Shown here one piece after another: positions 681-30,100 of a DNA stretch of 64,000 nt. The stretch lies in the sequence record PQ511146.1; one strand, written 5' to 3'. The notes under the pieces are model-generated. The model was not told the DNA's origin and ran no database searches. It saw only the letters and a list, made by a program, of their open reading frames with translations. Within the stretch, counting starts at the first letter, position 1; the number at the start of each line of letters is the position of its first letter. Made by a program: the position numbers and the translations under genes. This DNA comes from Escherichia phage NHEP1.

Positions 681-875
681 CTAGACGAACTCTGCAAGGG
701 TTGTGTTGTTCACTGCACCGCAGTAGATGGAGTATCCCAACCCGTTAGGGTGTAGAAACCACGGCACACCTTGATCATCCTTCACGTATACATCTCCATT
801 TTCCGTAAAGGGCCAATACTCTTCTCCAAGGGTAAAATACCTACTCATACCTTCAGCCAGATACTTTACTTTCAT
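681..875 (-). CDS. small hypothetical protein, member 1 of a tandem paralog triplet
   Basis: 64 aa; shares motif DDxGxxWF/L...G...G...A.F with the next two ORFs. Confidence 0.5.
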   Translation of the reverse strand: MKVKYLAEGMSRYFTLGEEYWPFTENGDVYVKDDQGVPWFLHPNGLGYSIYCGAVNNTTLAEFV

Positions 876-1099
876 AGATCCTCTTCAACAGCTACAAACT
901 TGGCAAGTAGGGTGGTTCCATAGATATGATACTCACCGTTTGCCAGATGGGAGATAAACCAGGCAACACCGTCCTCGTCTTCGATCATATTGTTTCTGCG
1001 ATCCTCGTCGTAATAAACCTTGTAGACCTTACCTTCTTCAAAGAATGATAGGTCTGTCATCTTCTCTTCTACAAATGTCGCTTTAACCAAAGTTGTCAT
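872..1099 (-). CDS. small hypothetical protein, member 2 of tandem paralog triplet
   Basis: 75 aa; EDEDGVAWFISHLANGEYHIYGTTLLAKF matches paralog motif; overlapping stop/start with neighbours. Confidence 0.5.
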   Translation of the reverse strand: MTTLVKATFVEEKMTDLSFFEEGKVYKVYYDEDRRNNMIEDEDGVAWFISHLANGEYHIYGTTLLAKFVAVEEDL

Positions 1100-1380
1100 T
1101 GATCTGCCTCCTTCTTGTTGAGCCGGAACACTGCAATAATAGCATTTCCAAGATGCAGTGTCAAATCATTTCCCAGATACCATAACATTCCACGGTCATC
1201 TTTAATGAAAGGGTAACAATCCGGTGCCTTCCAGACATTATACACTTTGCCGACCTGAAAGAAATCAGGCCCTGTTGGAATTTTAGTACCGGGCCATACT
1301 TGGGACACCTGAACGCATTCTACCTGCATAATGACAGGGATAGTCATGGAGGTAAATGTTTTTGTTGGTTCTACTACCAT
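1096..1380 (-). CDS. small hypothetical protein, member 3 of tandem paralog triplet
   Basis: Track ORF 1096..1470 overlaps polymerase 3' end; ATG at 1380 preceded by GAGAGGAGA SD; KDDRGMLWYLGNDLTLHLGNAIIAVF matches paralog motif. Confidence 0.5.
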   Translation of the reverse strand: MVVEPTKTFTSMTIPVIMQVECVQVSQVWPGTKIPTGPDFFQVGKVYNVWKAPDCYPFIKDDRGMLWYLGNDLTLHLGNAIIAVFRLNKKEADQ

Positions 1381-1429: not shown

Positions 1430-4400
1430 TTAGTGACAATCACCCCAGTTACGACCGCACAAGTATTCACCTGTGATCTGGAACGGAACGCCCATCATTT
1501 TAGAAGCCTGCCAGAAGCAATGCACCACCATTTCGCCCACAGGGCTCCAGATAAGCTCAAGCTTTCCGTCATCATTCAAGATAGGATCGTATACCGTATT
1601 TCCATCCTTGTCAACCACTTCGTTTCCGTCCTCATCTTTGCGTGCCTTTTTGTACTTATGACCGTCGAACACATGAAGTTTAGCCTCTTGTTGGGCTTTA
1701 AATGTTTCCAGCTCTTCAATTGTGTCGAAGGTGTATACGGTTTTATACTTAGGTGTGTCAGGCACTTGAAGCTGATATTCGTCATGGTAATAGATAATAC
1801 GACGAACACCCTCATCATACCATCCACGCTTCACCATCTGGTGGTGCATGAGGATTCCGACCAAGTCGCACAACGATGCACCGCCATTTTGCTGATATGC
1901 ATTAAGCAAAGAGTGTTTAGAGCGGGTCCAAATGGCATGCCCGTCAAAAGAGTAGATAAATTTCTTACCTGTTGCTTCCCAGAATTTCTCCAGATCCTCT
2001 TTACGCCCCTTAAGGCCCGGGTTGGCATCCCAGAGAGCATCAATTACTCTCTGTCCAAGTTCTGGAGAGATATCTAGCATATCTGCAACTTTATCTTTTT
2101 GTGCCCCGTACATAACCCCATATGTGACAGGCTTACCATCGTTACGGGAAATCTCCTTGCCTGCTACAGAAGAGTAAGCTTTGGCGTTATTACAGTTACC
2201 GCACACTGCCACTTTACCATTCCTTCTCACAATGATTGCTCCAGAAGGGACGGTAACGCAATAAACCAAAGAACCGCTCACCTCGACAGACTCTTTAGAT
2301 AGTGTCAGCAACCCTGCTCTCTGTTTGCTACCAATCGTGATTCTGTGCTGTACGGAACGACCTTTTTTGTGAATCGCCACCGTATTATTCCGTAAACCAC
2401 ACTGAGTAGCCAGCGCAGACACAACCTCTACAGATTTCTTCCTGCACCCGGCCTGAGAGTAGTAGGCAACTTTTCCACCTTCGGAAGATACCCACCCGTC
2501 CCAGTTAGATAAAGAAGCTATAAACAGGTTTTTAGATTCTTTATCAAGGTCCATCAGGTTGTAGGTGAAATCCTTATTGCTGTCCAAAAACTCAAATACC
2601 CAGGACGGAACGTGGAATTGGAACCTTCTCGCCAGTAAGCCCCCTTTTGTGGTTTTCCCGCTCTGCTCTACATAACTAAGGCTTAGAGCAGAAAAAGTAT
2701 CTAAAAGCGTTGCAACTTTTCTGCCCTTCCCGACCTGAATCCTGCACACGATGCTGCCGTCCTTATTTGTATGCAAGTGCCCATCATCGTGAATAGCAAT
2801 AAGCAAATTAACCTGGGCAGGAGATAAGGTTGTATTCCCATAAAACTCTGCCGCATGGATAAACCTTCTTCCTGAATTAGACCCTTTACCTGCTTTCAGG
2901 TCTTTTGCCAAATCTTCAAACAATTTATTGCTTCTGTGATCCACGGTCAGCATCCTGTGTTGATCTGTAACCATAAAATCCACACTGCTGTTGTGGAAAT
3001 GATACATATCCCCACAATAACTACGCTTAACGTAATTTAATGGAGTAACAAGGTTCATCGACGAGGTGTTGTGATCGTACTGGAACACCTGTGTTCCCGG
3101 ATCAAGATCTTCAAACCTCACCCACCCTTTCTCCGTGAGAATTTGTGTATCTCCTGAATAACAGTGTGCATCGCCGTTACTTACAACATCATAATACAGA
3201 CCGTTGTCAAACTCAAAGGCACCCCAGGCCCCGATGAGCTGCTCTAAGTTGGACCCGTCAATACCGATCTCAAAGTATCCTGGAGGAACACCCCACAGAC
3301 TACGCATCTCTTTACCCATAACCACTTTAGGAGATGGTTTAGGCATGTTTGCACAAATACTATGTTTCTGTCTGGAAGTGTTTGTTAATCCAGAACTTTT
3401 AGCAGGAAGCTTGTGGTCAATCTTCAAACGTGGATGATTAAGAAGACCAGTATCAACCTTATCTTCCTTGATTGGATCAAGGACCGATCTGCGGTTTCGC
3501 AATGATAACCACAAAACGATATCTTTAGCCATCTCTCCGTTCAATTTTTCAAGATTCGGGCACAGGTGTCCAAACGTATCTTTCAGTTGCGGAGAAGTAA
3601 TAAGCGCTCTGGCTTTTCTACGTATCTTCCCAAACACTTCCTTTTTAATCCTTTCTGAGTTAGGGAAGCTTCGGAACTTATGCACAGTTGTCTGGAACTT
3701 GGCATCAGTTTTGTTCCAGAAGTTGATAATTAGATCACAATACTCTGACTCCAAAAGCTCGTCCATATATGCATATACTCGTGCATCAACATCTGCATCA
3801 GGTAAAGCTTTCTTCTTGCTGTCTTTAGTTACATCTTTAGTTCTCCACATTGTTGGGAGCCAACCAGCACTGATCAGGTATCGCTTGATGTCGTCCTGAT
3901 TGCTGATTTTCATAGGTATCTTGCAGTCAGGCATTCGCTTCTGCTGTAGGTCACTTATCGCCTGATCCATCAGCTCTTTAGGTAAAGGGTGTGGTGTAGA
4001 AGTTCCTTTGATATACCCCCTCAAGAAATCAGCCATCTTATCGGGGTCTTTACAGCCCATCTCTTCACACCATTTTATCCCCATCTTACTTACATCCCCT
4101 GTGGAGGTAAATGCTCGCTTAGGAGGAGCTTTGAACTCTAAAGCACTCATGTCCACAGGGTAGCCAAGCTTGTCTTTTAACCATTTCCAACCATTATTGG
4201 AGATTGTCCCATCTTGGTTAAACGGCTTTTCAGGGAACTTAGGCCGCTGAGACATTGATAACTCTTTTAAAGGAAGTTGTGGTTCAACACGATCAGCGAT
4301 CTCTTTCATCCACGCATCGCAACGGTCACGTAAAGCAATAGCCCCATCTATGTCGAAATACACCCCCTGTCGAGCCTGCAGCTCCATCAGGAAGTGCTGT

Positions 4401-5176
4401 AACATGCCTCGGCGTAATGCGTTCTTCCAGGTGATCTTCTTGAAGCCTTTCGGCTTCTCTTTGGCAGGATCGTACATAAAGTTCTGCATGTCAGATTTGC
4501 CGTAGAATACACCTTTTGATTCCGCTACCAACTCCTTCCAGAGCAACTCCTGGATGATAACGTCCTCGAACACACGATCCACATACTTCCACAGTGGAAG
4601 CTCACGCCAGTCATCGATTTGAACTTTCTGGTTACCAAGGGCATAGCCCCATGCCATAAGGCCATGAGGCCCAACAGGCTGCATTTTCTTGGTAACTGGA
4701 TTGAATACTGCGTCCGGACAACCTTTTGGCAAAGGGCGGTCAGGCCACAAGATTCGGCTCATCGCTAACGTATCAAACAGATTAACCGGGTGGTCGTTGA
4801 TAGTCCCCATGCATTTAGGATCACGGAACATATCAAAATGAATACCGGATAATCTTTCCATCAGCATAAAGTCGTAACTGTAGCAGTTATGACAGTTCAA
4901 AGCCGTAGGTGACCAGTCTGAATTGCCTGTAAGCCAACCTTCCAACTCTGAAAAATCTGCTATGCGAGCCTCAAAATCTGTATAAAGGGTCTTCTTTGCC
5001 AGAATGAAGTTCTTAGCTTTCTCCACATCCTCTTCAGAGTAGTGTGTGCGGTCATTTAGAGGAAGGAACAGCATAAAACGGTTCTTATTCAGCTCTTTAA
5101 ACAAACCGCAGTGATAATAAAGATCTGGGTCTTCCAGCAGGCCAGAGGCCTCAAAATCGAACGACCACATGCTCAT
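1430..5176 (-). CDS. DNA polymerase, family A, with N-terminal 3'-5' exonuclease domain; intein-containing precursor
   Basis: 1248 aa; Exo I motif FDFEASGL; Pol A motif A-like IDGSNLEQL, motif B KxxxYGxMYG, motif C YYHDE; AAGGAG SD before ATG at 5176. Confidence 0.9.
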   Translation of the reverse strand: MSMWSFDFEASGLLEDPDLYYHCGLFKELNKNRFMLFLPLNDRTHYSEEDVEKAKNFILAKKTLYTDFEARIADFSELEGWLTGNSDWSPTALNCHNCYSYDFMLMERLSGIHFDMFRDPKCMGTINDHPVNLFDTLAMSRILWPDRPLPKGCPDAVFNPVTKKMQPVGPHGLMAWGYALGNQKVQIDDWRELPLWKYVDRVFEDVIIQELLWKELVAESKGVFYGKSDMQNFMYDPAKEKPKGFKKITWKNALRRGMLQHFLMELQARQGVYFDIDGAIALRDRCDAWMKEIADRVEPQLPLKELSMSQRPKFPEKPFNQDGTISNNGWKWLKDKLGYPVDMSALEFKAPPKRAFTSTGDVSKMGIKWCEEMGCKDPDKMADFLRGYIKGTSTPHPLPKELMDQAISDLQQKRMPDCKIPMKISNQDDIKRYLISAGWLPTMWRTKDVTKDSKKKALPDADVDARVYAYMDELLESEYCDLIINFWNKTDAKFQTTVHKFRSFPNSERIKKEVFGKIRRKARALITSPQLKDTFGHLCPNLEKLNGEMAKDIVLWLSLRNRRSVLDPIKEDKVDTGLLNHPRLKIDHKLPAKSSGLTNTSRQKHSICANMPKPSPKVVMGKEMRSLWGVPPGYFEIGIDGSNLEQLIGAWGAFEFDNGLYYDVVSNGDAHCYSGDTQILTEKGWVRFEDLDPGTQVFQYDHNTSSMNLVTPLNYVKRSYCGDMYHFHNSSVDFMVTDQHRMLTVDHRSNKLFEDLAKDLKAGKGSNSGRRFIHAAEFYGNTTLSPAQVNLLIAIHDDGHLHTNKDGSIVCRIQVGKGRKVATLLDTFSALSLSYVEQSGKTTKGGLLARRFQFHVPSWVFEFLDSNKDFTYNLMDLDKESKNLFIASLSNWDGWVSSEGGKVAYYSQAGCRKKSVEVVSALATQCGLRNNTVAIHKKGRSVQHRITIGSKQRAGLLTLSKESVEVSGSLVYCVTVPSGAIIVRRNGKVAVCGNCNNAKAYSSVAGKEISRNDGKPVTYGVMYGAQKDKVADMLDISPELGQRVIDALWDANPGLKGRKEDLEKFWEATGKKFIYSFDGHAIWTRSKHSLLNAYQQNGGASLCDLVGILMHHQMVKRGWYDEGVRRIIYYHDEYQLQVPDTPKYKTVYTFDTIEELETFKAQQEAKLHVFDGHKYKKARKDEDGNEVVDKDGNTVYDPILNDDGKLELIWSPVGEMVVHCFWQASKMMGVPFQITGEYLCGRNWGDCH
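2195..3163 (-). mobile_element. intein (about 323 aa) in DNA polymerase between motifs A and B, with putative LAGLIDADG-type homing endonuclease
   Basis: Begins CYSGDTQIL (block A, Cys1 codon at 3163-3161); TxxH block B (VTDQH); LLIAIHDDG and IASLSNWDG resemble LAGLIDADG; ends ...VAVCGN with +1 Cys; motif B resumes right after. Confidence 0.7.
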
Positions 5177-5234
5177 ATACAGTTCTCCTTAAAGGGGAGG
5201 CGGTTGTACTACCCCTCCCACTCTTGGTTAAACA

Positions 5235-7313
5235 TTAAAAAGGTGTTTCGTCGTCTTCAAAACCAGGAACGTGGTTAGAGGACGGATCATCATACTGAAG
5301 GTCTTCCTGTGTGTCAACAGGGTTAACAGCAGGGGTTATAACCTTATCAGCCACAACCTTGCCCACAGGTGTTTCTACAACTGCATGCTCCTGATCCTCA
5401 AACATAGCCTGAGGTCTCCAAACAACCTCCCCACCTTCCCCGTCTGTAAACATCTGCATTTCTTTGTCCCAGTACCAGTTGCTGGCATCATAGAACTTGC
5501 CTGTGTGGGGATCCATAACTAGAGTGTCCGCAATACCTAAGGTTTTTGCTGGGCGGTTTTTAAGACCTACCAGTCGGACACGTCCACGGGAACGATCCAC
5601 CATCTCCTCTGCCTCTACCCCGACAACCACCCAGCTAAGTTGCTCCAATCCGGCACTACCGCGAAGGTTCTCTTTTCGTACAGGGTACCAGAAAGGTAAC
5701 GGATTTCCATCCTTATCCTTCGGAGGTACAATCTCTGTGCGCTTCAGGTGAGCAATCACCAAGATAAACACATTAAACTGCTTACAGAACGCGGCTAGTT
5801 GAGTCATAGCCATGTCAAGCTCTTTACGCTCATCCTTAACATTAAGCCCTGAAATCACCATAGACAGGTGATCCAGCACAATGTAACGGCAGTGATACAG
5901 GCACACCATTTGTTTAAGCTTAGTGATCAGCTCATCTACAGGGATGGAGCCGAAATGCTTGAACACTTTGATTTTTCCGGCCTTGGCCCAAGATTGATGA
6001 ATCTCAGCGTGCTCCTGATCGGTCAGGAACTGACTGGGGTCTTCAACAAACTCTTTAACATCAAACCCCAGCTGGTTAGCGTACAGAGAGTTGATTGCTT
6101 CCTCAGGATCCTCTTCAAGGTGAATCAGGCACAGGCGATCATCCTCTTCATAATCATCAGCTTTAGGGCATGTTGGATCCATCAAGTATCTTGCAATGCA
6201 ATGTTCCAGCTTCTTGGCTACAGTTGTTTTACCACCGCCAGACGGGCCTGTCAGCATCATCAAGGTGCCTTTGTGGAGTCCTTTCAGCATCTTCTGCAGT
6301 TTAGGGAACTCTGCACTGATATCTACGCCATTGGAAGTCTTCTTACGAAGAGATTCAATGGAGAAGTCTTCTAAATCAGATACAGCATCAGGCACATATT
6401 TGACTGGGTGACGGAACATGTTGACAATATCTTCCAGCTTTTTAGCCTTCAGCATGTCACGAATATCTTTTACACCATCAGGGTCGTTTACCTCACCCGG
6501 GTATTCCACGTGGTAAACGTTATCAGCCATCAAAAATGCTGCGATATTATGTGTGGCTTCAACACCTTTAATAACGTGTTTTTGCTTCTCTACCTCGTTA
6601 GCTGCATCGTTGTCCATTGCAAGGACCACTGTTCCGTAGCTACGGATAAATTTCTCATTGTTCGCAAAAGTGTCTACGGCGTTTGCACACCCACAGTTAA
6701 TTCCAACAAAAGGCAGGCATGGTTTTCCTGCCAGATCCCCGCCGTTGATAACTGCATCAATCCCATCCTGGACTTCTTTAGCCCACTGCTTCACCTTCGC
6801 TGGGGCTTTAGCATTGGTGAGAATTCCTTTTACTTGTATCTGATATGCAGCCTGCCACGCTGCAATAACATCTCCTTCTCCCTCACAAACGTTAATCTGC
6901 TTACGGTTGTTGGAGGATGCACACAGCTTTTGACCAAACATCTGGGAGTTGGCCTTTACTATGCCAACAACCGAGAAATGGCCCCTTTGCTCTTTAGGGA
7001 TTGTCCAGTCACGCTTTTTAAAGCCAGATAGATTACCGTAGCGGTCATAATACGGAAAGTAGGTGGCAGTAACAGTTACACCATCCTCTTGGGATAGCGA
7101 TGATCGTACACCAAAATATTGTGCAGCCATCAGTCCAATATTTTGTTGTGGAACAGGGACAATTTTAGTGTTTTCTAAAACAGTCTCCACAGTTTCAACT
7201 TCTTTTTCATCACGATAGTCTCGTTTCACACTCCCCCCACTTTTATACTTAGTTGCTTTCGGGTTTGGCTCACCGAAACGGTTGTATGCAGATGCCATGA
7301 ATTTACTGCCCAT
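5235..7313 (-). CDS. DNA primase/helicase (TOPRIM-like N-terminal region plus DnaB-like ATPase)
   Basis: 692 aa; Walker A LTGPSGGGKTT, Walker B-like YIVLDHLS; acidic VLAMDNDAANE region N-terminal of the ATPase; AAGGAG SD. Confidence 0.7.
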   Translation of the reverse strand: MGSKFMASAYNRFGEPNPKATKYKSGGSVKRDYRDEKEVETVETVLENTKIVPVPQQNIGLMAAQYFGVRSSLSQEDGVTVTATYFPYYDRYGNLSGFKKRDWTIPKEQRGHFSVVGIVKANSQMFGQKLCASSNNRKQINVCEGEGDVIAAWQAAYQIQVKGILTNAKAPAKVKQWAKEVQDGIDAVINGGDLAGKPCLPFVGINCGCANAVDTFANNEKFIRSYGTVVLAMDNDAANEVEKQKHVIKGVEATHNIAAFLMADNVYHVEYPGEVNDPDGVKDIRDMLKAKKLEDIVNMFRHPVKYVPDAVSDLEDFSIESLRKKTSNGVDISAEFPKLQKMLKGLHKGTLMMLTGPSGGGKTTVAKKLEHCIARYLMDPTCPKADDYEEDDRLCLIHLEEDPEEAINSLYANQLGFDVKEFVEDPSQFLTDQEHAEIHQSWAKAGKIKVFKHFGSIPVDELITKLKQMVCLYHCRYIVLDHLSMVISGLNVKDERKELDMAMTQLAAFCKQFNVFILVIAHLKRTEIVPPKDKDGNPLPFWYPVRKENLRGSAGLEQLSWVVVGVEAEEMVDRSRGRVRLVGLKNRPAKTLGIADTLVMDPHTGKFYDASNWYWDKEMQMFTDGEGGEVVWRPQAMFEDQEHAVVETPVGKVVADKVITPAVNPVDTQEDLQYDDPSSNHVPGFEDDETPF

Positions 7314-8067
7314 TAATTCTTCTCCTTACTGCAGGCTCGTTTGCTAAGAATACAGCTCTTGCCCAGCCACGTGGTGTAAGGCTTCGAATCATCTTCGTCC
7401 TTGCACTCTTTCCACCTAGCTTAGCGTGTTGCATGGAATAACCACTAACCGCATCAACTATTTGCGGGACAGGTTTTGTGGCGGGGATTATAAATCCATT
7501 GCCTATCCAACCGCAAGTTATTTTTGGGTAGGCATCACGTGGAGCTATAAATTCAGGAAACCATGGGTTTACATCATCCTCTGGTAAATACCCACCATAA
7601 TCCGAAGGATGAAAACGGTAATCAGGTTTTCGCCACAGTGTTGACATAACTCCTACAGGGTTCTCTACATGCCACGGGCAATCGTAAATCTCTCCCAACT
7701 CTTCTGCAACCCGAGCATCTTTCACAGCATTAATTTGGATCAGAGGATCCTTAGCCAGCTTTTTCTTAAAGTGTGCAGCTCCGGATACTGCTAAATGCGT
7801 GCACGGAGGAAATGCAAGAATAAAGTCTGGAGCCGGATACATGCAAAAAGTTTCTTGAGGGAACCATGGATCAATCCAATAATCCACATAGTGAATGTTA
7901 GGATGATCGGTTATCACCTCTACATAACTACCGTGGTCAGCACCTTCTGCATTAAAGCACAGGCACAGGTACCCAGCTTTTGCCCAGTCAATAACTGCAC
8001 CACCGGACCCGTCAAATAGACTCCACACGACACCTTTGTGGTAGTGTTCTTTGTAGATAAATTTCAA
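7303..8067 (-). CDS. DNA (cytosine-5)-methyltransferase-like protein
   Basis: Motif I SLFDGSGG (FxGxGG), motif IV-like FPPCTHLAVSG (PPC), motif VI HVENPVG (ENV) in canonical order; track start GTG at 8097 lies in a terminator hairpin, TTG at 8067 follows AGGAGA SD (start uncertain). Confidence 0.5.
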   Translation of the reverse strand: MKFIYKEHYHKGVVWSLFDGSGGAVIDWAKAGYLCLCFNAEGADHGSYVEVITDHPNIHYVDYWIDPWFPQETFCMYPAPDFILAFPPCTHLAVSGAAHFKKKLAKDPLIQINAVKDARVAEELGEIYDCPWHVENPVGVMSTLWRKPDYRFHPSDYGGYLPEDDVNPWFPEFIAPRDAYPKITCGWIGNGFIIPATKPVPQIVDAVSGYSMQHAKLGGKSARTKMIRSLTPRGWARAVFLANEPAVRRRINGQ

Positions 8068-8118: not shown

Positions 8119-8601
8119 TTAAACCCGGATACCTATTGTATACTCGGTGGATACCAATGTCAAATCTAAATTTAAAATTTCTTGCATCTCATAGTATGCG
8201 TCCAGGGTGAGATACATTTCACCATCCTTTTCTACATACTTGTCAAGGTGTTTTAGGCACTTTGGATAGCTATCAAGGGCAGCCTTTAGGCACTCAAACT
8301 CCGTGCTGTTGATGAATCCTTCCATCTTGGCTACCCGTTCCGGAGTAACGATAGCACTGTAGTGAGATTTAGCTTCCTGAATGCAATGGGTCCAAGCATC
8401 AACTTTCTCTTCGAAAAGTCCGAAGAACTTCTTCTTGGTGAGCTTCAGATTCTTTAAGTGCTTAAGAACTCGGTTGCCGATTACAGACACATCACGAAAC
8501 TTAAGGATCACTTTGTCAATATCCTCGCGGCCTATTTTCACAAAGCAGGCCTCACACATTTCAGGAGAGGCATAGCCTACTTTCCACATAAAATCTGACA
8601 T
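8119..8601 (-). CDS. hypothetical protein
   Basis: 160 aa ORF; AAGGAGGG SD 7 nt upstream of ATG. Confidence 0.6.
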   Translation of the reverse strand: MSDFMWKVGYASPEMCEACFVKIGREDIDKVILKFRDVSVIGNRVLKHLKNLKLTKKKFFGLFEEKVDAWTHCIQEAKSHYSAIVTPERVAKMEGFINSTEFECLKAALDSYPKCLKHLDKYVEKDGEMYLTLDAYYEMQEILNLDLTLVSTEYTIGIRV

Positions 8602-8613
8602 AGCACTCCCTCC

Positions 8614-9012
8614 TTATTCCTGAAAAGCAACGATATCGTATGAGCTTGCAGACGAGCCGGGGGAAGAGTGACTCCAGTCTAGATCATCAGAGAAGTCAGC
8701 ATACTGTGCACCACTCCGCAGTTTATATTTTACCCACTTACCTGGTGCAGGGTTTTCACCACCCTCCCATACTTCCCAACCTTCTGGCAAGCCGTTATCT
8801 TGGGAGTAACCATCAACTTCACTAGTGATCTCTGGGTTTGGCACCAAGATCCATGCAGGCTCTTCCTTCTTAGCAAGTGTCCACACAATGTATGTGTCTG
8901 AGCAGGAGCATGTCAGTAAAGTATACCCACTGTTCAGAACTTCTGCAAGCTCTTTTTCAGCATCTTCTAATTTGGTTAGGTGGTATTGGATAATCTTCAC
9001 ATCTGTAATCAT
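8614..9012 (-). CDS. hypothetical protein
   Basis: 132 aa ORF; AGGAGG SD upstream of ATG. Confidence 0.6.
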   Translation of the reverse strand: MITDVKIIQYHLTKLEDAEKELAEVLNSGYTLLTCSCSDTYIVWTLAKKEEPAWILVPNPEITSEVDGYSQDNGLPEGWEVWEGGENPAPGKWVKYKLRSGAQYADFSDDLDWSHSSPGSSASSYDIVAFQE

Positions 9013-9314
9013 TAGAAGCCTCCTACTTCTTCAGCAAATGCTGCCGCTGTCGTCGCTGCATCCAGATAGGACTCTAGTTCACGTGCTGCACGTTTGTAAA
9101 TCGAGTGGCGCAGATCGTTTGGTAACTGGTGAAAATCCACCTCTTCTCCGTTGTGGTAAACATGCACATCAGTAATCTGTCTAAATCCATAATAATCAAC
9201 ATCAGAATCACGGCACTCCAGATCTGGCAACTGGACAACTGCCTGAGCCTCTACAGTGAGCATATCGTCAAGTTCGAAATCGATTTCAAAAGTGTATGGT
9301 TTATAACGCTTCAT
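9012..9314 (-). CDS. hypothetical protein
   Basis: 100 aa ORF; AAGGAG SD upstream. Confidence 0.6.
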   Translation of the reverse strand: MKRYKPYTFEIDFELDDMLTVEAQAVVQLPDLECRDSDVDYYGFRQITDVHVYHNGEEVDFHQLPNDLRHSIYKRAARELESYLDAATTAAAFAEEVGGF

Positions 9315-16621: not shown

Positions 16622-17806
16622 TCAAGCTTTAGCTAAAATGGCGCTAAACTCTTCACCAAACTCTTTTACAATCTTCATCAGGTTTGGGTATGCTTTGATC
16701 AGCTGAGCGACGATCTTGTCCCTGCCTTTACCAATAAGTAAGGCATTTCCTAAGGCGTTAGGTTTCATCATCGCCATAAAGACTGAGAATACAAAGTCTC
16801 GGTTCTCATCCTTGAAATTTTCCCAAAGGAAATCAAGGAAGTTTGCCACACAGCTGACAAGATCTTCGTCGGAGATACTTGCATTTTCCATCATATTACG
16901 AATAGCGATACAACCTTCTGACCCCAGAATCCACAAGATGTCTGGCTGCTTAGGACCTACATATTCTTTGCAGCCTCCTGCCATAATCCGACCGATTTCT
17001 GGCAAGTTTCGTTTCTTGGTGTGGTAGGTCCAAATTTCTACCGCTGCAGTGTGACCAATTGCACCTTGTAGAAGGACACGGGCCATAGCGTCAGAAATAA
17101 TACCGCTGTCAAAATCGTGCAGGATGTCAGATGCAGCAACCCAAGATCGCGGTGTGGCAAAAGATGGACAATTAATCTCAGCCATGGCCTCATAATTATC
17201 AATGGCTGATGGGACTCTTTTCAGATATCCAATTACAGAGGAGTGCACCCCATTAAGGAATGCATAGTCCTCAATAAACACCTCTGCACTGCTTGTAACT
17301 TCTACAATGATAAAGCGGTTAGCTAGAGGAGCTTCGAGCGCCGAAAGAACAGCACCGTCTGTAGCACGGTTACCTGCAGCTACAAAAACAGAGCCCTTAG
17401 GAAATGCATAGGTGCCGCACTTGTGGTCGAGCATAATTTGCATTGCAACCTTCTGCAGGTAGTTATCTGCATGAGTAAGCTCGTCTAGAAAGATAATTCC
17501 GCTCCAGTCCGGATCTGCAGGCCAAAATTCTGGAATTGCAAACACTGTACGTGTAGTCCCATCCGACTCTACAGGGATAGGTAGCCCAGATAAGTCAGCA
17601 GGGTCTTTATCTGACAGTCGCACGTCAACAAGGTTGTCATCTCGCTCACCGAACATATTATCAGCGATCTGCTTCATCACCTGACTTTTACCCACACCCA
17701 TTGGTCCCAAAATTAGGACAGATCGGCTATGACGTTGGGCAAACTGAATAATGGCTGGCAACTCACGGACAGTGATTTGACCACTTTCGAATACGTTTCT
17801 TGACAT
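16622..17806 (-). CDS. AAA+ ATPase, MoxR/CobS-like (AAA_5-type)
   Basis: 394 aa; Walker A ILGPMGVGKSQV, Walker B IIFLDELTHA. Confidence 0.75.
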   Translation of the reverse strand: MSRNVFESGQITVRELPAIIQFAQRHSRSVLILGPMGVGKSQVMKQIADNMFGERDDNLVDVRLSDKDPADLSGLPIPVESDGTTRTVFAIPEFWPADPDWSGIIFLDELTHADNYLQKVAMQIMLDHKCGTYAFPKGSVFVAAGNRATDGAVLSALEAPLANRFIIVEVTSSAEVFIEDYAFLNGVHSSVIGYLKRVPSAIDNYEAMAEINCPSFATPRSWVAASDILHDFDSGIISDAMARVLLQGAIGHTAAVEIWTYHTKKRNLPEIGRIMAGGCKEYVGPKQPDILWILGSEGCIAIRNMMENASISDEDLVSCVANFLDFLWENFKDENRDFVFSVFMAMMKPNALGNALLIGKGRDKIVAQLIKAYPNLMKIVKEFGEEFSAILAKA

Positions 17807-18108
17807 TAGTAAAAGTCCTCTACTTGTGTGTAAGTGTTTTCAAAGTTTTCCAAAACAGATGTCACATCGGATCTGTCAATATCGTACACAACTTCCCAGT
17901 TGTATGCAACCCTTTCTGCTGTTGCTTCTTCGGGACTTAACCGCCTACTGGGGTGAAAGAATGTTGGAGTGCACTTTCTTAGCTGTTTCCCGATTTTCCC
18001 ATAACAATACCTGTGGATAATTTTGTCAAAATTTAACTCTTTTTCTGCACAAAGTTCATGTTTCTGGTATAGCATGTTTATTACTCTTTTAAGTGGCCTC
18101 CTTGCCAC
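17806..18108 (-). CDS. hypothetical protein
   Basis: 100 aa ORF in compact minus-strand operon. Confidence 0.5.
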   Translation of the reverse strand: MARRPLKRVINMLYQKHELCAEKELNFDKIIHRYCYGKIGKQLRKCTPTFFHPSRRLSPEEATAERVAYNWEVVYDIDRSDVTSVLENFENTYTQVEDFY

Positions 18109-26388: not shown

Positions 26389-26465
26389 ATGCCTTCATAA
26401 ACTACCTGCCTCTGTGTGATTACCCTTCTAAATAAAATACCCTCTCAAATTGCTTAAAATTAAGC

Positions 26466-26494
26466 TTGACATCAACACCAGATTTATATATGAT
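26466..26494 (+). promoter_or_regulatory. sigma70-like promoter (TTGACA-N17-TATGAT)
   Basis: -35 TTGACA 26466-26471, 17-nt spacer, -10 TATGAT 26489-26494; about 30 nt upstream of SD/ATG at 26525. Confidence 0.55.
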
Positions 26495-26524
26495 TATCTC
26501 ATCAACCAAGCAGAGGAGATTGTC

Positions 26525-26932
26525 ATGGATAATCTTGCGAGTGTGAACGTCGAAATTGTTAAACTAAAGTTCTTGGGCTTTCGAGACCCTAATTCTCTAA
26601 CAGCTATACTGATGGATACCCACTTCACACCTGGGAAAGAGTACACTGCCTTCCGTTATATTTGTGGAGATCACGAATCGGCCTATAGTGTGAATACAAA
26701 CCTCGGCGAGGGATATTTCATCAAAGATATCACAGATCACTTGTGGGGTATGTGGGAATTGGTGGAAGAAGAGAATAAATCCCTTCCCAAAGAGATTTGG
26801 GTGCACACCTTCCACACAGGTAAGTTCGGAGGTACGGAACATAAGTCTATCCACTATGAAGAAGAAAGTGCCATCAAACAACAAGCTGTGCTTGGTGGAT
26901 CTGTAGAAAAATTTGTTAAATGCGAGGACTGA
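26525..26932 (+). CDS. hypothetical protein
   Basis: Track ORF 26450..26932 overlaps the promoter; ATG at 26525 preceded by AGAGGAGA SD. Confidence 0.55.
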   Translation: MDNLASVNVEIVKLKFLGFRDPNSLTAILMDTHFTPGKEYTAFRYICGDHESAYSVNTNLGEGYFIKDITDHLWGMWELVEEENKSLPKEIWVHTFHTGKFGGTEHKSIHYEEESAIKQQAVLGGSVEKFVKCED

Positions 26933-27183: not shown

Positions 27184-30100
27184 TTAAAGAGAGAAAGTCG
27201 CGTAGGCTCCCAGACGATACTGCTGATCACCAGGGAACATAACACCTATAGAGGCTGTCCCTAGAATCCTGCCTTCCTTTCCAGACTCCATTCTGAACCC
27301 TACCCATCCGGAACTCCTTGCAGCCTCGATGTTGTCGCTATACCCAAAAGTGGCAAGCTCGTCAACACCAGCTCCAAACAGCAACTGAAGCTGACTTCTC
27401 GGAAGCCCTATAATTTCAGGAATATATGCACCAAAGTACACCATCTGCCCTACCTTAGGACCGCTGCCGTACTCCATCGGCTTGCTTGTAGAGAAAGTCT
27501 TCATACCAGAAGTCCCTGCCGGATTAGGGTATGCCCCGTTTGTTGCTGTGCCTATCCACATTCTCCACTGAGGTGCCATCTGTCTGACAGTGAAAGATGT
27601 TGAAGACGTTTTGCGGCCTGCATCATCCGTAACTACAAACTTTATAGTGACATTACCAGGGGCTTTAAATGTTACCAATCCTGTGGTAGCATCCACTGTT
27701 GCAATGTTAGTATTACTACTTTCCCAAGTCTTTCTAATCCCTGGCACATTGGAAGGGGTAATAGAAGGTTCCTGCATCTGCAGTTTACCGCCCACAATCC
27801 CTATGCCGTTACCTGGATTATACAACGCACCAACTTCATCTACAATGTTACCTGCCTTGAGGCTGTACTTTTTAGAGAAGTTGTAAGTGCCGTTATATGC
27901 GTGTGTCCCTGAGAAGGTTACATCTGCCTTGCCGTTGGAGATGCAAACCAAAGCATACTTCCTGTCAGGCAACTGTGCCCCAGTTTCTGGGTGAGTTTTA
28001 CCCACCTGGAACACGCTCGGGTCAGTAGAGTCGTGGCTATCACTAACAGAGCTTGGACCACCCATCAACTGTGACAAGCAATTCCTTACCCATGTCCAGT
28101 TATTGTCACTGGAGAAGTCTACAGTCAAATCAAACACAACCCACTCATTTGGCTTCCACACAGGTGTTGTGATCAACTTACCAACACCCCCACCCTGAAG
28201 AGTAGGAGATTGTTCAGTGATCAGGGCAGAGTATGCCAGAGTGCCCAACTGCATAGTCTGGCTTGCTGTCCTCACTACCTTAGAATCAGCATCTGTGAAG
28301 TTGTTGATGATCTGGAATGTGCCATAAGTGTTTTTACAGGTAATTCTGGCGTTCAGTGTGTCAATCTTCCTCACATCTGCCATAGCAGTGTTAGACACAG
28401 AGAAGTCAGAAGCTTTAGCTGAGTTTGCTGCAACAGCCGGATCAACGTTGAGGGTTGCGTTGAACTGGCAGGCAGGAGTAACCAGCAGCTTGTTATCACC
28501 TATTTGCTTCCATGAAACACTTTGAACAGGGAGATTCCATTTAATACCTGAGAAAACTTTAGCAACCCTTGGTCCCAGAGCTCCCGTCCTGTTGTCTTTA
28601 CAGCACATGGACATAGTGATCGTTGACGGGGTGGCCTGACCAAACAATTGTTGTGCTTTTGCAGAGGACATGGTGTAGAAATTGTCCTTAACAAACTCAT
28701 CAGCCGCTAACGATCCGTCAGATCTCCACCATTGCACCTGGTACCCAGTCTTATCCCAGCCACCGACCTGCTTTAAGTCCTCCCAAGAGATTTCCAAATC
28801 TCCGGTGGTAGGGTTAATTGCCGCAGTTCCTGGTGTTCCAGATGACCATATTGGGATATCGAACCACGCTGGTTTAACAGACTGCACTGCGTTAGGTCCT
28901 ATTGCAGCAGCAAGTTGTTGACCCATCAATACGCGAGCATCTTTCACCAGACCCCACTCAATCATAGACCCAGAGTAACCCTCTTTCTTATATGCGGATG
29001 ACCCATTCAAGTGAATAAGTCTACTTGTGCCGAAGTTATGTGCTCCACCGCCGTTGTCGTCTGCAAAATTGGTTATGATTCTATCCCTGATGTTTTTCCA
29101 TGCCCTGCCCCCAATCTCGTAGTCATGGTCATAACATCTTTGCAGCGTTGTCCAGCAAATGATCGCCATCCTTCTGCCGTTACTGAAGCCAAAAGCCTGA
29201 TCGTTAAGCTCTCTCCACAAATAGCAGTTAGTGGTCCACATAGCTCTGTGAATGTTGAACCAGTTTATAGACTTGGCTGAGTTATCCCACTGAGTCCCAG
29301 GTAATTCAGGCCACACTGCATTAACCAGCATGTCTTCTGTTCCTGCATCAACCAAGAACCCTCTTACCTTTTTACCCATGCCTACCCTGTCTTTTGCAAT
29401 CCAACTGCCAAACAATCTCAGTTTTGGACCGTAAACAACATCTTCCGGATGCTCAAAAGAGACATACTTCAGATATACTGTAGGGTCACCATAGGTGCCA
29501 TCACAAACAGCTTTGTGCATGTTCTCGCCAAGGTCTAGACGAAGTCCTGTTACAACTTTTGACGTGTCGGTGAATTTGTCTGTTAAATCAAATTCATACC
29601 ACCACCAACCTGCACCCAACAATACCTTCTTACAACGCTGCGCATCTGTATCAGATATTCTCTTATCTCCTGAAAAAGGTGAGTCAGCAAACTGATAGTG
29701 CAGAGCAATTTCAAAAGGATGTGTGGAGGTCCCGTTTTCTGCAAGGACTTGTTTACCTATTAAGTCACACTTAATAATCATCACAACACGTTTGTACCCA
29801 TTTGTTACTGGGATCTGCATAGACATAGATGTCCCGTCCATGTTTGATCTCAGCGCAGTCATGATGATATAAGGATCAACGGCATTACCAAGAGTTTCAG
29901 GCCCTGGAATTATCTTATACTTCTTAACCTGCCCCATGATGTAATCACTGGCGTAAGTTGCAGCCTCGAAGCAAGATCCCCCGTTAGGCAGTTCCCCTGG
30001 CCCCCAGAAAAATGCGCCATAACAGTTATAAAACCACTTGTTAGGGTCGTATTTGTTCTTGAAGGTCTGAACCTCGTTGGCCTGTTTTGTCAAGAAAACC

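Follow-up and report, generated by a model that had tools for sequence, protein, structure and literature searches.

In phage T7, the small genes downstream of gene 5 encode gp5.5, which binds H-NS, gp5.7, which acts on RNA polymerase, and gp5.9, which inhibits RecBCD; these accessory proteins act by binding host proteins and are not paralogues of one another. Another small phage protein, Gp54 of Escherichia phage Bas11 (JohannLBurckhardt), is non-essential and binds the host immunity protein CapRel directly, clamping it with the beta1-beta2 loop and the barrel core (PMC11578894). It was published in 2024 as an orphan with a rare barrel topology, is known only as the CapRel trigger and is the sole solved structure with this fold (PMC11578894), represented by PDB 9AXB and 9ERV and by the Pfam family PF25180, “Phage antiviral trigger protein Gp54”. 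Residue I25 of Gp54 decides CapRel activation, which even I25V abolishes; close homologues fail to activate CapRel, and the authors suspect that Gp54 inhibits another defence system (PMC11578894).

We analyzed a window of 64,000 nucleotides from Escherichia phage NHEP1 (PQ511146.1), in which three small genes, here named ORF1, ORF2 and ORF3, follow the gene for a family-A (T7-like) DNA polymerase (Table 1). We found that they are genuine ancient paralogues, lying next to each other on the same strand as a tandem array, and each is predicted, from structural models for ORF2 and ORF3 and from sequence for ORF1, to encode an SH3-like beta-barrel of about 60 residues and six strands with the fold of Gp54. 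As with the T7 proteins mentioned above, their genes come immediately behind a T7-type polymerase gene and encode small accessory proteins, a likeness of gene position with no claim of kinship in sequence or fold.

The first 6 kb of the window matched about 120 phage records by megablast with 85-99% identity, nearly all of them Vequintavirus and the closest being S127 BCL3, and by its sequence the window is a Vequintavirus genome, that of an rV5-like E. coli myovirus. In rV5 itself, the genes run on one strand in the order DNA methyltransferase, helicase-primase, DNA polymerase, gp219, gp218, gp217, gp216, a sigma-70 promoter and gp215, and gp216-219 are all annotated as “hypothetical protein”. 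ORF1-3 are syntenic with rV5 gp217-219. In fact, the 760-bp block of the array is collinear in 113 GenBank phage records with 85-99.6% identity, all three genes are kept together in every GenBank vequintavirus (n = 113), and their proteins are 82-100% identical to their counterparts in more than 110 GenBank phages.

Table 1. Position of the three paralogous genes, their translation signals, their neighbours and the related features in other phage sequences.
Sequence	Feature	Position	Strand	Description
Window	ORF1	681-875	minus	64 aa; pI 4.55; rV5 gp217/ORF222; phrog_12802, profile E=9.2e-48
Window	ORF2	872-1099	minus	75 aa; pI 4.4; rV5 gp218/ORF223; phrog_12623, profile E=4.9e-50
Window	ORF3	1096-1380	minus	94 aa; rV5 gp219/ORF224; phrog_12922, profile E=2.7e-67
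Window	ORF2 stop/ORF1 start overlap	872-875		ATGA
Window	ORF3 stop/ORF2 start overlap	1096-1099		ATGA
Window	Shine-Dalgarno-like sequence of ORF1	879-885	minus	AAGAGGA, upstream of the ATG
Window	Shine-Dalgarno sequence of ORF2	1107-1113	minus	AAGGAGG, 7 nt upstream of the ATG; conserved in six vequintaviruses
Window	Shine-Dalgarno sequence of ORF3	1387-1393	minus	AGAGGAG, 6 nt upstream of the ATG (1380)
Window	Candidate sigma-70 promoter	1136-1164	minus	TTGACA/17-nt spacer/TATTAT, TG upstream; consensus scan, 11/12 matches
Window	Family-A (T7-like) DNA polymerase	1430-5176	minus	1248 aa; directly upstream of the array, same direction
Window	Intein-like insert of the polymerase	2195-3163	minus	323 aa (aa 672-994)
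Window	gp216 homologue	299-670	minus	123 aa from ATG at 670; phrog_6273; downstream of the array
Window	ORF with weak array-profile match	26432-26929	plus	E 0.02-0.06
Window	ORF with weak array-profile match	9012-9314	minus	E 0.056
L001	Possible distant paralogue (rV5 gp211)	704-946		81-82 aa
L005	Possible distant paralogue	8457-8705		81-82 aa
L011	Possible distant paralogue	7166-7411		81-82 aa
L005	Ead/Ea22-like gene and 63-aa ORF	5203-5998		200 aa, PF13935 (Ead/Ea22-like)
L011	Ead/Ea22-like gene and 63-aa ORF	3907-4702		200 aa, PF13935 (Ead/Ea22-like)
L005	Extra paralogue	6908-7108		
L017 (4MG)	Slot with DUF551 gene	4590-5146		between polymerase and gp216 homologue
L008 (rV5_ev168)	105-aa ORF3 orthologue	1926-2243		protein P0031
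L004 (Bas11, MZ501085)	bas11_0048	17579-17944		weak array-profile match, E=2e-5
L004 (Bas11, MZ501085)	bas11_0079	27217-27654		weak array-profile match, E=5e-4

ORF1-3 are real genes under purifying selection. Each of them covers its whole PHROG profile. Each also has a ribosome-binding site of its own, and consecutive genes overlap by their stop and start codons, which fits coupled translation of the three. The start of ORF3 was placed at the ATG because of the Shine-Dalgarno sequence in front of it and because phrog_12922 has exactly 94 positions and was matched end to end; a longer form of 124 aa starting from a GTG at 1470 was rejected, since it would overlap the polymerase gene. We then computed dN/dS for the genes of the window against five other vequintaviruses. 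The values were 0.09-0.135 for ORF1, 0.14-0.19 for ORF2 and 0.012-0.016 for ORF3, compared with 0.01-0.03 for the C-terminus of the polymerase and 0.08-0.13 for the gp216 homologue, and the constraint on ORF3 (dN/dS about 0.015) thus equals that on the polymerase. Within ORF3, the candidate promoter is found at the 3' end of the gene and precedes the start of ORF2 by 37 nt. Both of its hexamers are invariant in six vequintaviruses with three copies and are lost in L005 and L011, two contigs in which ORF2 does not follow ORF3; coding constraint alone could account for their conservation.

The initial annotation had described three consecutive small ORFs downstream of the polymerase, sharing the motif DDxG(V/M)xW(F/Y)(L/I), and had taken them for a local gene triplication. 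The ORFs are indeed found there, with lengths of 64, 75 and 94 aa and all on the minus strand. The motif is present as well, except that ORF2 has DEDG and the strict form is therefore D[DE]xG[VM]xW[FY][LI]; among the 663 ORFs of 40 aa or more in all six frames of the 64-kb window, its loose form occurs in exactly these three. As for the triplication, the paralogy proved significant, and 4, at least 6 and 7 copies are present at the same locus elsewhere. Smith-Waterman scores of the ORF pairs, compared with 2000 shuffles, gave z values between 5 and 10, namely 7.4 for ORF1-ORF2 (0/2000), 9.7 for ORF2-ORF3 (0/2000) and 5.1 for ORF1-ORF3 (4/2000). BLASTP aligned ORF2 with ORF3 (E=8e-7) and ORF1 with ORF3 (E=7e-4). 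Moreover, we built leave-one-out HMMs from the orthologues of two families with the third omitted and searched 825 ORFs of the window. The omitted ORF was the best non-self match each time, with E=3.3e-4 for ORF1, 8.5e-8 for ORF2 and 2.4e-5 for ORF3. In the alignment of the extended family, the invariant columns hold F, G, Y, D, G, W and F. The paralogues share about 30-45% amino-acid identity and no repeats were found between ORF1-3 at the DNA level, which indicates that the duplications are old and not recent. PHROGs keeps the three families (12802, 12623 and 12922) as unrelated and unannotated.

It might still be supposed that the shared motif is due to chance or composition, or that the ORFs are not genes, since the proteins are short and BLASTP gave no alignment for the ORF1/ORF2 pair. 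The shuffles, the leave-one-out HMMs (E 3e-4 to 9e-8 among 825 ORFs), the unique fold match described below, which ORF2 and ORF3 have in common, dN/dS values under 0.2, the ribosome-binding sites and seven mutually related copies in L005 stand against this supposition, which is already refuted by the tests run and whose probability is close to nil.

The array HMMs found no further convincing paralogues in the window, and the gp216 homologue, which they did not match, is not an array paralogue. Two ORFs of the window gave weak matches to the array profile (Table 1), one of which, that on the plus strand, contains HFTPGKEYTAF, resembling the core FTxGKxY; judged by sequence, these two ORFs could be very remote relatives, or the matches could be due to chance. 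A gene of 81-82 aa about 2 kb further downstream, past the left end of the window, was weakly matched (E about 0.01) by a widened profile at three loci independently and, with rV5 gp211 as one representative, may be another distant paralogue.

The structure prediction and homologue search that had been proposed as further checks gave the following results. The AlphaFold2 model of ORF2, made from an alignment of 11 sequences, has a pLDDT of 92 and a pTM of 0.80 and shows six strands and a short helix within the long beta1-beta2 loop. ORF3 is predicted as a six-stranded barrel of the Gp54 fold, in which the N-terminal tail is disordered and the beta1-beta2 loop (residues about 26-45) is long and invariant. 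Both models match the same unique fold, the Gp54 barrel, and the predicted structure has the six-stranded small barrel and prominent beta1-beta2 loop that define the fold of 9AXB. ORF2 and ORF3 are thus predicted with confidence to adopt it, and ORF1 is by its sequence a member of the same family. The D-x-x-G hairpin lies between predicted strands 3 and 4, and the invariant residues F, G, Y, D-x-x-G, W and F look, judged by the alignment and the predicted strand positions, like the barrel core and hairpin turns rather than an active site. Residues 20-41 of ORF3, including the beta1-beta2 loop, are invariant between orthologues that are 73% identical overall, which points to this loop, the same element that is functional in Gp54, as a probable interaction surface. 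Some ORF3 orthologues have 105 aa owing to an in-frame tandem duplication of 11 aa between strands 2 and 3 (KAPDCHPFIKE-KAPNCYPFIKDD), as in protein P0031, and a small insertion at this place does not seem to disturb the barrel.

Gp54 resembles the array proteins in being a single-domain, mildly acidic protein of about 65 aa, and its gene sits among small genes adjoining the helicase and methyltransferase genes. However, the array proteins share only 12-13% identity with it, and Gp54 is encoded by a single gene of a siphovirus (Drexlerviridae), whereas the array consists of 3-7 tandem paralogues in a myovirus. We took the Gp54 sequence from MZ501085 and assigned it to PF25180, with 116 bits against a gathering score of 27 bits, and to phrog_7421. 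PF25180 gave no match to ORF1-3 (Pfam, E<=1) or to the extra paralogues (E<=5), and a profile search of the PDB sequences gave nothing significant and did not find 9AXB. When the family of 23 sequences was compared with a Gp54 alignment of 12 sequences by hhalign, sequence homology was not established (E=0.015, probability 3%); the register is structurally sensible, with the F-x-x-G and G-x-x-W landmarks aligned, and places K of ORF2 and ORF3 or E of ORF1 at Gp54 I25. Since the fold is known from 9AXB but the sequence match to PF25180 fails, the array represents a sequence family of its own that has the Gp54 barrel and was multiplied in tandem. Other small barrels scored at background and have no sequence motif in common with the array, including SH3-like barrels (RecD SH3, FeoA and eukaryotic SH3), which are five-stranded, and the PliC/PhiA lysozyme inhibitors, which are eight-stranded periplasmic barrels (PliC).

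Homologues of the array are mostly vequintavirus proteins, together with putative distant phage relatives that include repeat proteins. Whether started from the triplet alignment or from a broader one of 22 sequences, word-indexed searches returned almost only vequintavirus proteins, and when 1.8 billion representative proteins were searched exhaustively with the profile, only 19 matches at E<1e-3 were obtained. Those outside the vequintaviruses comprise the single-domain proteins P0059 and P0063 and proteins in which the pattern FTxGKxYxV...DDxG(..W) recurs 2-6 times, namely P0053, P0055, P0058, P0060, P0061, P0064 and P0065, of which P0064 carries a C-terminal DUF3310. The family profile reached the repeat proteins at E 1e-10 to 7e-4, often covering only the N-terminal half of the domain, and there were reciprocal PHROG matches. 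These proteins belong to PHROGs 3523, 3249, 4927, 10169 and others, none of which has a functional annotation. Members of these four PHROGs (P0053, P0061, P0064, P0065) share the core FTxGKxYxV...DDxG..W with the array, but they repeat the domain 2-6 times per polypeptide, sometimes fused to DUF3310, while the array is made of single domains. Direct matches of ORF1-3 to the profiles of phrog_3523 and phrog_3249 are weak (E 1e-3 to 5e-3), and the intermediate P0063, which together with the exhaustive search would link the two groups, matches both phrog_3249 (E=1.8e-6) and phrog_12623 (E=4e-4). In their genomes the distant relatives lie in early or replication regions with many small genes, near Prim-Pol and DUF3310 genes. 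The very long proteins P0054, P0056, P0057 and P0062 (beta-helix, ankyrin, fn3-like) were rejected as artefacts of repeats or composition, with E 0.02-0.3 under the improved profile, and P0066, which looks like a propeller-type repeat, was not counted as a relative.

Searching the predicted structures of BFVD with Foldseek, we obtained many small uncharacterized phage proteins with TM-scores of 0.7-0.8, among them several per Drexlerviridae genome (at least 4 in NBD2), others from the Cronobacter phages CR9 and CS01 and from phAPEC8, and one Enterococcus-phage DUF3310 protein. In Bas11 itself, the array profile weakly matched two proteins, bas11_0048 and bas11_0079, one of which is encoded six genes from gp54. 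The Drexlerviridae may carry several diverged copies of the domain, in line with the multiple BFVD matches per genome.

The number of copies at the locus varies. The 113 GenBank vequintaviruses have three paralogues and no other array content. The rV5-like metagenomic contigs L011-L013 have four (counted by HMM on L011 and taken from the same gene order for L012 and L013), L006 has at least six in an array cut by the contig end, and L005, a contig of 136.8 kb in GCA_012894635.1, has seven. In L011-L013 an Ead/Ea22-like gene and a 63-aa ORF come after the ORF3 orthologue; L005 contains the same two genes, and in the arrays of four and seven copies this insert parts the ORF3 orthologue from the remaining paralogues. 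The ORF3 orthologue is the gene next to the polymerase in every array variant. In L005, the region of the polymerase shares 87-95% identity with known vequintaviruses, but the array has no megablast match. The L005 orthologues of ORF3, ORF1 and ORF2 share 73%, 69% and 50% identity with those of the window, and its four further copies show no more than 22-45% identity to any other copy; one extra paralogue of L005 (Table 1) had no match in GenBank phages by tblastn or in IMG/VR.

Outside the vequintaviruses, Seunavirus 4MG has no paralogue, the place from its polymerase to its gp216 homologue being taken by a single DUF551 gene, and Certrevirus CR3 and Mydovirus KB57 have none either and carry other small genes. 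HMMs detected no homologue of the array after the polymerase in these three phages, whose polymerases are orthologous to that of the window with about 56-63% identity. The gp216 homologue of the window is 39% identical to 4MG_015 (E=4e-20) and is the conserved right-hand border of a variable slot. The slot between the polymerase and gp216 seems to be a site at which small accessory genes are exchanged across genera of Vequintavirinae.

We further considered what the array proteins may do. Scans of ORF1-3 against Pfam and NCBIfam gave no matches and no enzyme family, nor did we find homology to a characterized anti-defence inhibitor. Ten paralogues were examined, and all of them proved acidic to neutral (pI 4.4-6.8); ORF1 and ORF2 have a net charge of -4 to -9, ORF3 of about 0, and none is basic. 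Because the proteins are acidic to neutral and presumably cytoplasmic and their invariant residues look like those of a fold, they are most likely stoichiometric protein-binding modules. By analogy with Gp54 we tentatively prefer, with somewhat less than even confidence, the explanation that the array encodes acidic, non-catalytic binding modules that are made with the replication genes and engage host or immune proteins. The proteins would be made early or mid infection, judging from gene position; each paralogue would present a different surface, especially its beta1-beta2 loop, to a host or immune target, and the binding would mirror the clamp of Gp54 on CapRel through the loop and barrel core. 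ORF3, always found beside the polymerase and invariant in its loop, may bind a partner of a more housekeeping kind than those of ORF1 and ORF2. The direct binding of Gp54 to a host immunity protein offers a precedent in favour of binding modules, and the related domains that appear from their sequences to occur as 2-6 repeats in single proteins, some fused to DUF3310, also favour them. The variable size of the array, the Ead/Ea22 insertion, the swap for a DUF551 gene in 4MG and the absence from CR3 and KB57 speak for an accessory character. The initial annotation had remarked that such arrays in phages often encode host-takeover or anti-defence factors, and a role of this kind may apply here: the Gp54 precedent, the differing gene content of the slot in sister genera and the acidic proteins, in which no catalytic motif was seen, are in its favour, whereas a simple arms race is countered by the purifying selection on all three genes, by the constraint on ORF3 at the level of the polymerase and by the intact triplet in 113 genomes. 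The dN/dS of ORF3 and the fixed triplet look more like a core function than like an arms-race gene and, with the sequence comparison to Gp54 given above, count against the preferred explanation.

An alternative to which we give a clearly smaller, though real, probability is that at least one of the proteins, ORF3 above all, is an accessory factor of the replisome, binding the T7-like polymerase, the helicase-primase or SSB for efficient replication and not acting on the host. The genes for methyltransferase, helicase-primase and polymerase precede the array on its strand, and its distant relatives likewise lie in early or replication regions. Moreover, the dN/dS of ORF3 matches that of the polymerase C-terminus, its beta1-beta2 loop is invariant, and it remains next to the polymerase despite the Ead/Ea22 insertion. 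On the other hand, the orthologous polymerases of 4MG, KB57 and CR3 do without a detectable homologue behind them, 4MG having the DUF551 gene there, the copy number varies from 3 to 7, and Gp54, the only characterized member of the fold, is dispensable (PMC11578894). It is somewhat less probable, and on the whole unlikely, that the paralogues assemble into one hetero-oligomer, a “split” multi-repeat protein whose functional unit is the array. The ATGA overlaps would fit coupled and roughly stoichiometric translation, apparently related domains are found as tandem repeats within single polypeptides, and every GenBank vequintavirus keeps the three genes as a set; nevertheless, arrays of 4 and 7 copies have insertions between their members, the three genes differ greatly in dN/dS, and the candidate internal promoter would uncouple ORF2 and ORF1 from ORF3. 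Small nucleic-acid-binding barrels of the Sm, OB, cold-shock or KOW-like kind, acting on RNA or DNA of phage or host, rank last among these readings and are improbable: such binding is disfavoured by the charge of the proteins given above, and the conserved residues occupy hydrophobic-core and turn positions.

A wider form of the protein-binding explanation would hold that the Gp54-type mini-barrel is a widespread modular phage scaffold engaging host immune sensors, that the array consists of diversified copies neutralizing, or sensed by, different host proteins such as CapRel-type fused toxin-antitoxins, and that the expansion from 3 to 7 copies reflects an ongoing arms race. We consider this unlikely as a whole. 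If it were true, the fold called rare in 2024 would be among the larger unrecognized superfamilies of phage accessory proteins.

The genes of ORF1-3 were already known as hypothetical ones and the fold was known from 9AXB; their mutual relationship and their fold were not found in the databases and literature searched, where we found no mention of paralogy, fold or function in work on rV5 gp217-219, on vequintavirus accessory genes or in the follow-up of Gp54. If the fold assignment is right, the Gp54 barrel is no oddity: a wide range of small phage proteins would be built from it, in three forms, as single genes, as tandem arrays of 3-7 copies and as 2-6 repeats within one protein, and a fold described as rare would seem to be common in the small proteins of phages. 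Three “hypothetical” genes of more than 110 therapeutic-candidate E. coli phages, including rV5, FV3 and several BASEL phages, gain a structural class, which provides testable hypotheses on their binding partners and their detection by immune sensors, and the natural arrays of 3, 4 and 7 copies allow comparison. The analysis of the array reveals no new mechanism.

Two more observations concern the neighbourhood of the array. Sixteen GenBank records (MG0656xx) bear the name “Campylobacter phage”, and in most of them the host is given as Campylobacter jejuni; across the array region they are 85-95% identical to E. coli vequintaviruses, and their assignment to a Campylobacter host looks doubtful. 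The polymerase of the window carries an insert that is absent from the 925-aa polymerase of S127 BCL3, to which it is otherwise 97-99.6% identical. The insert begins with Cys (CYSGDTQILT...), ends with ...VCGN followed by Cys, has a weak Hint_2 match and by these sequence features looks like an intein; in rV5, FV3, FFH2 and EmilHeitz, the polymerase is instead split by an HNH homing-endonuclease gene.
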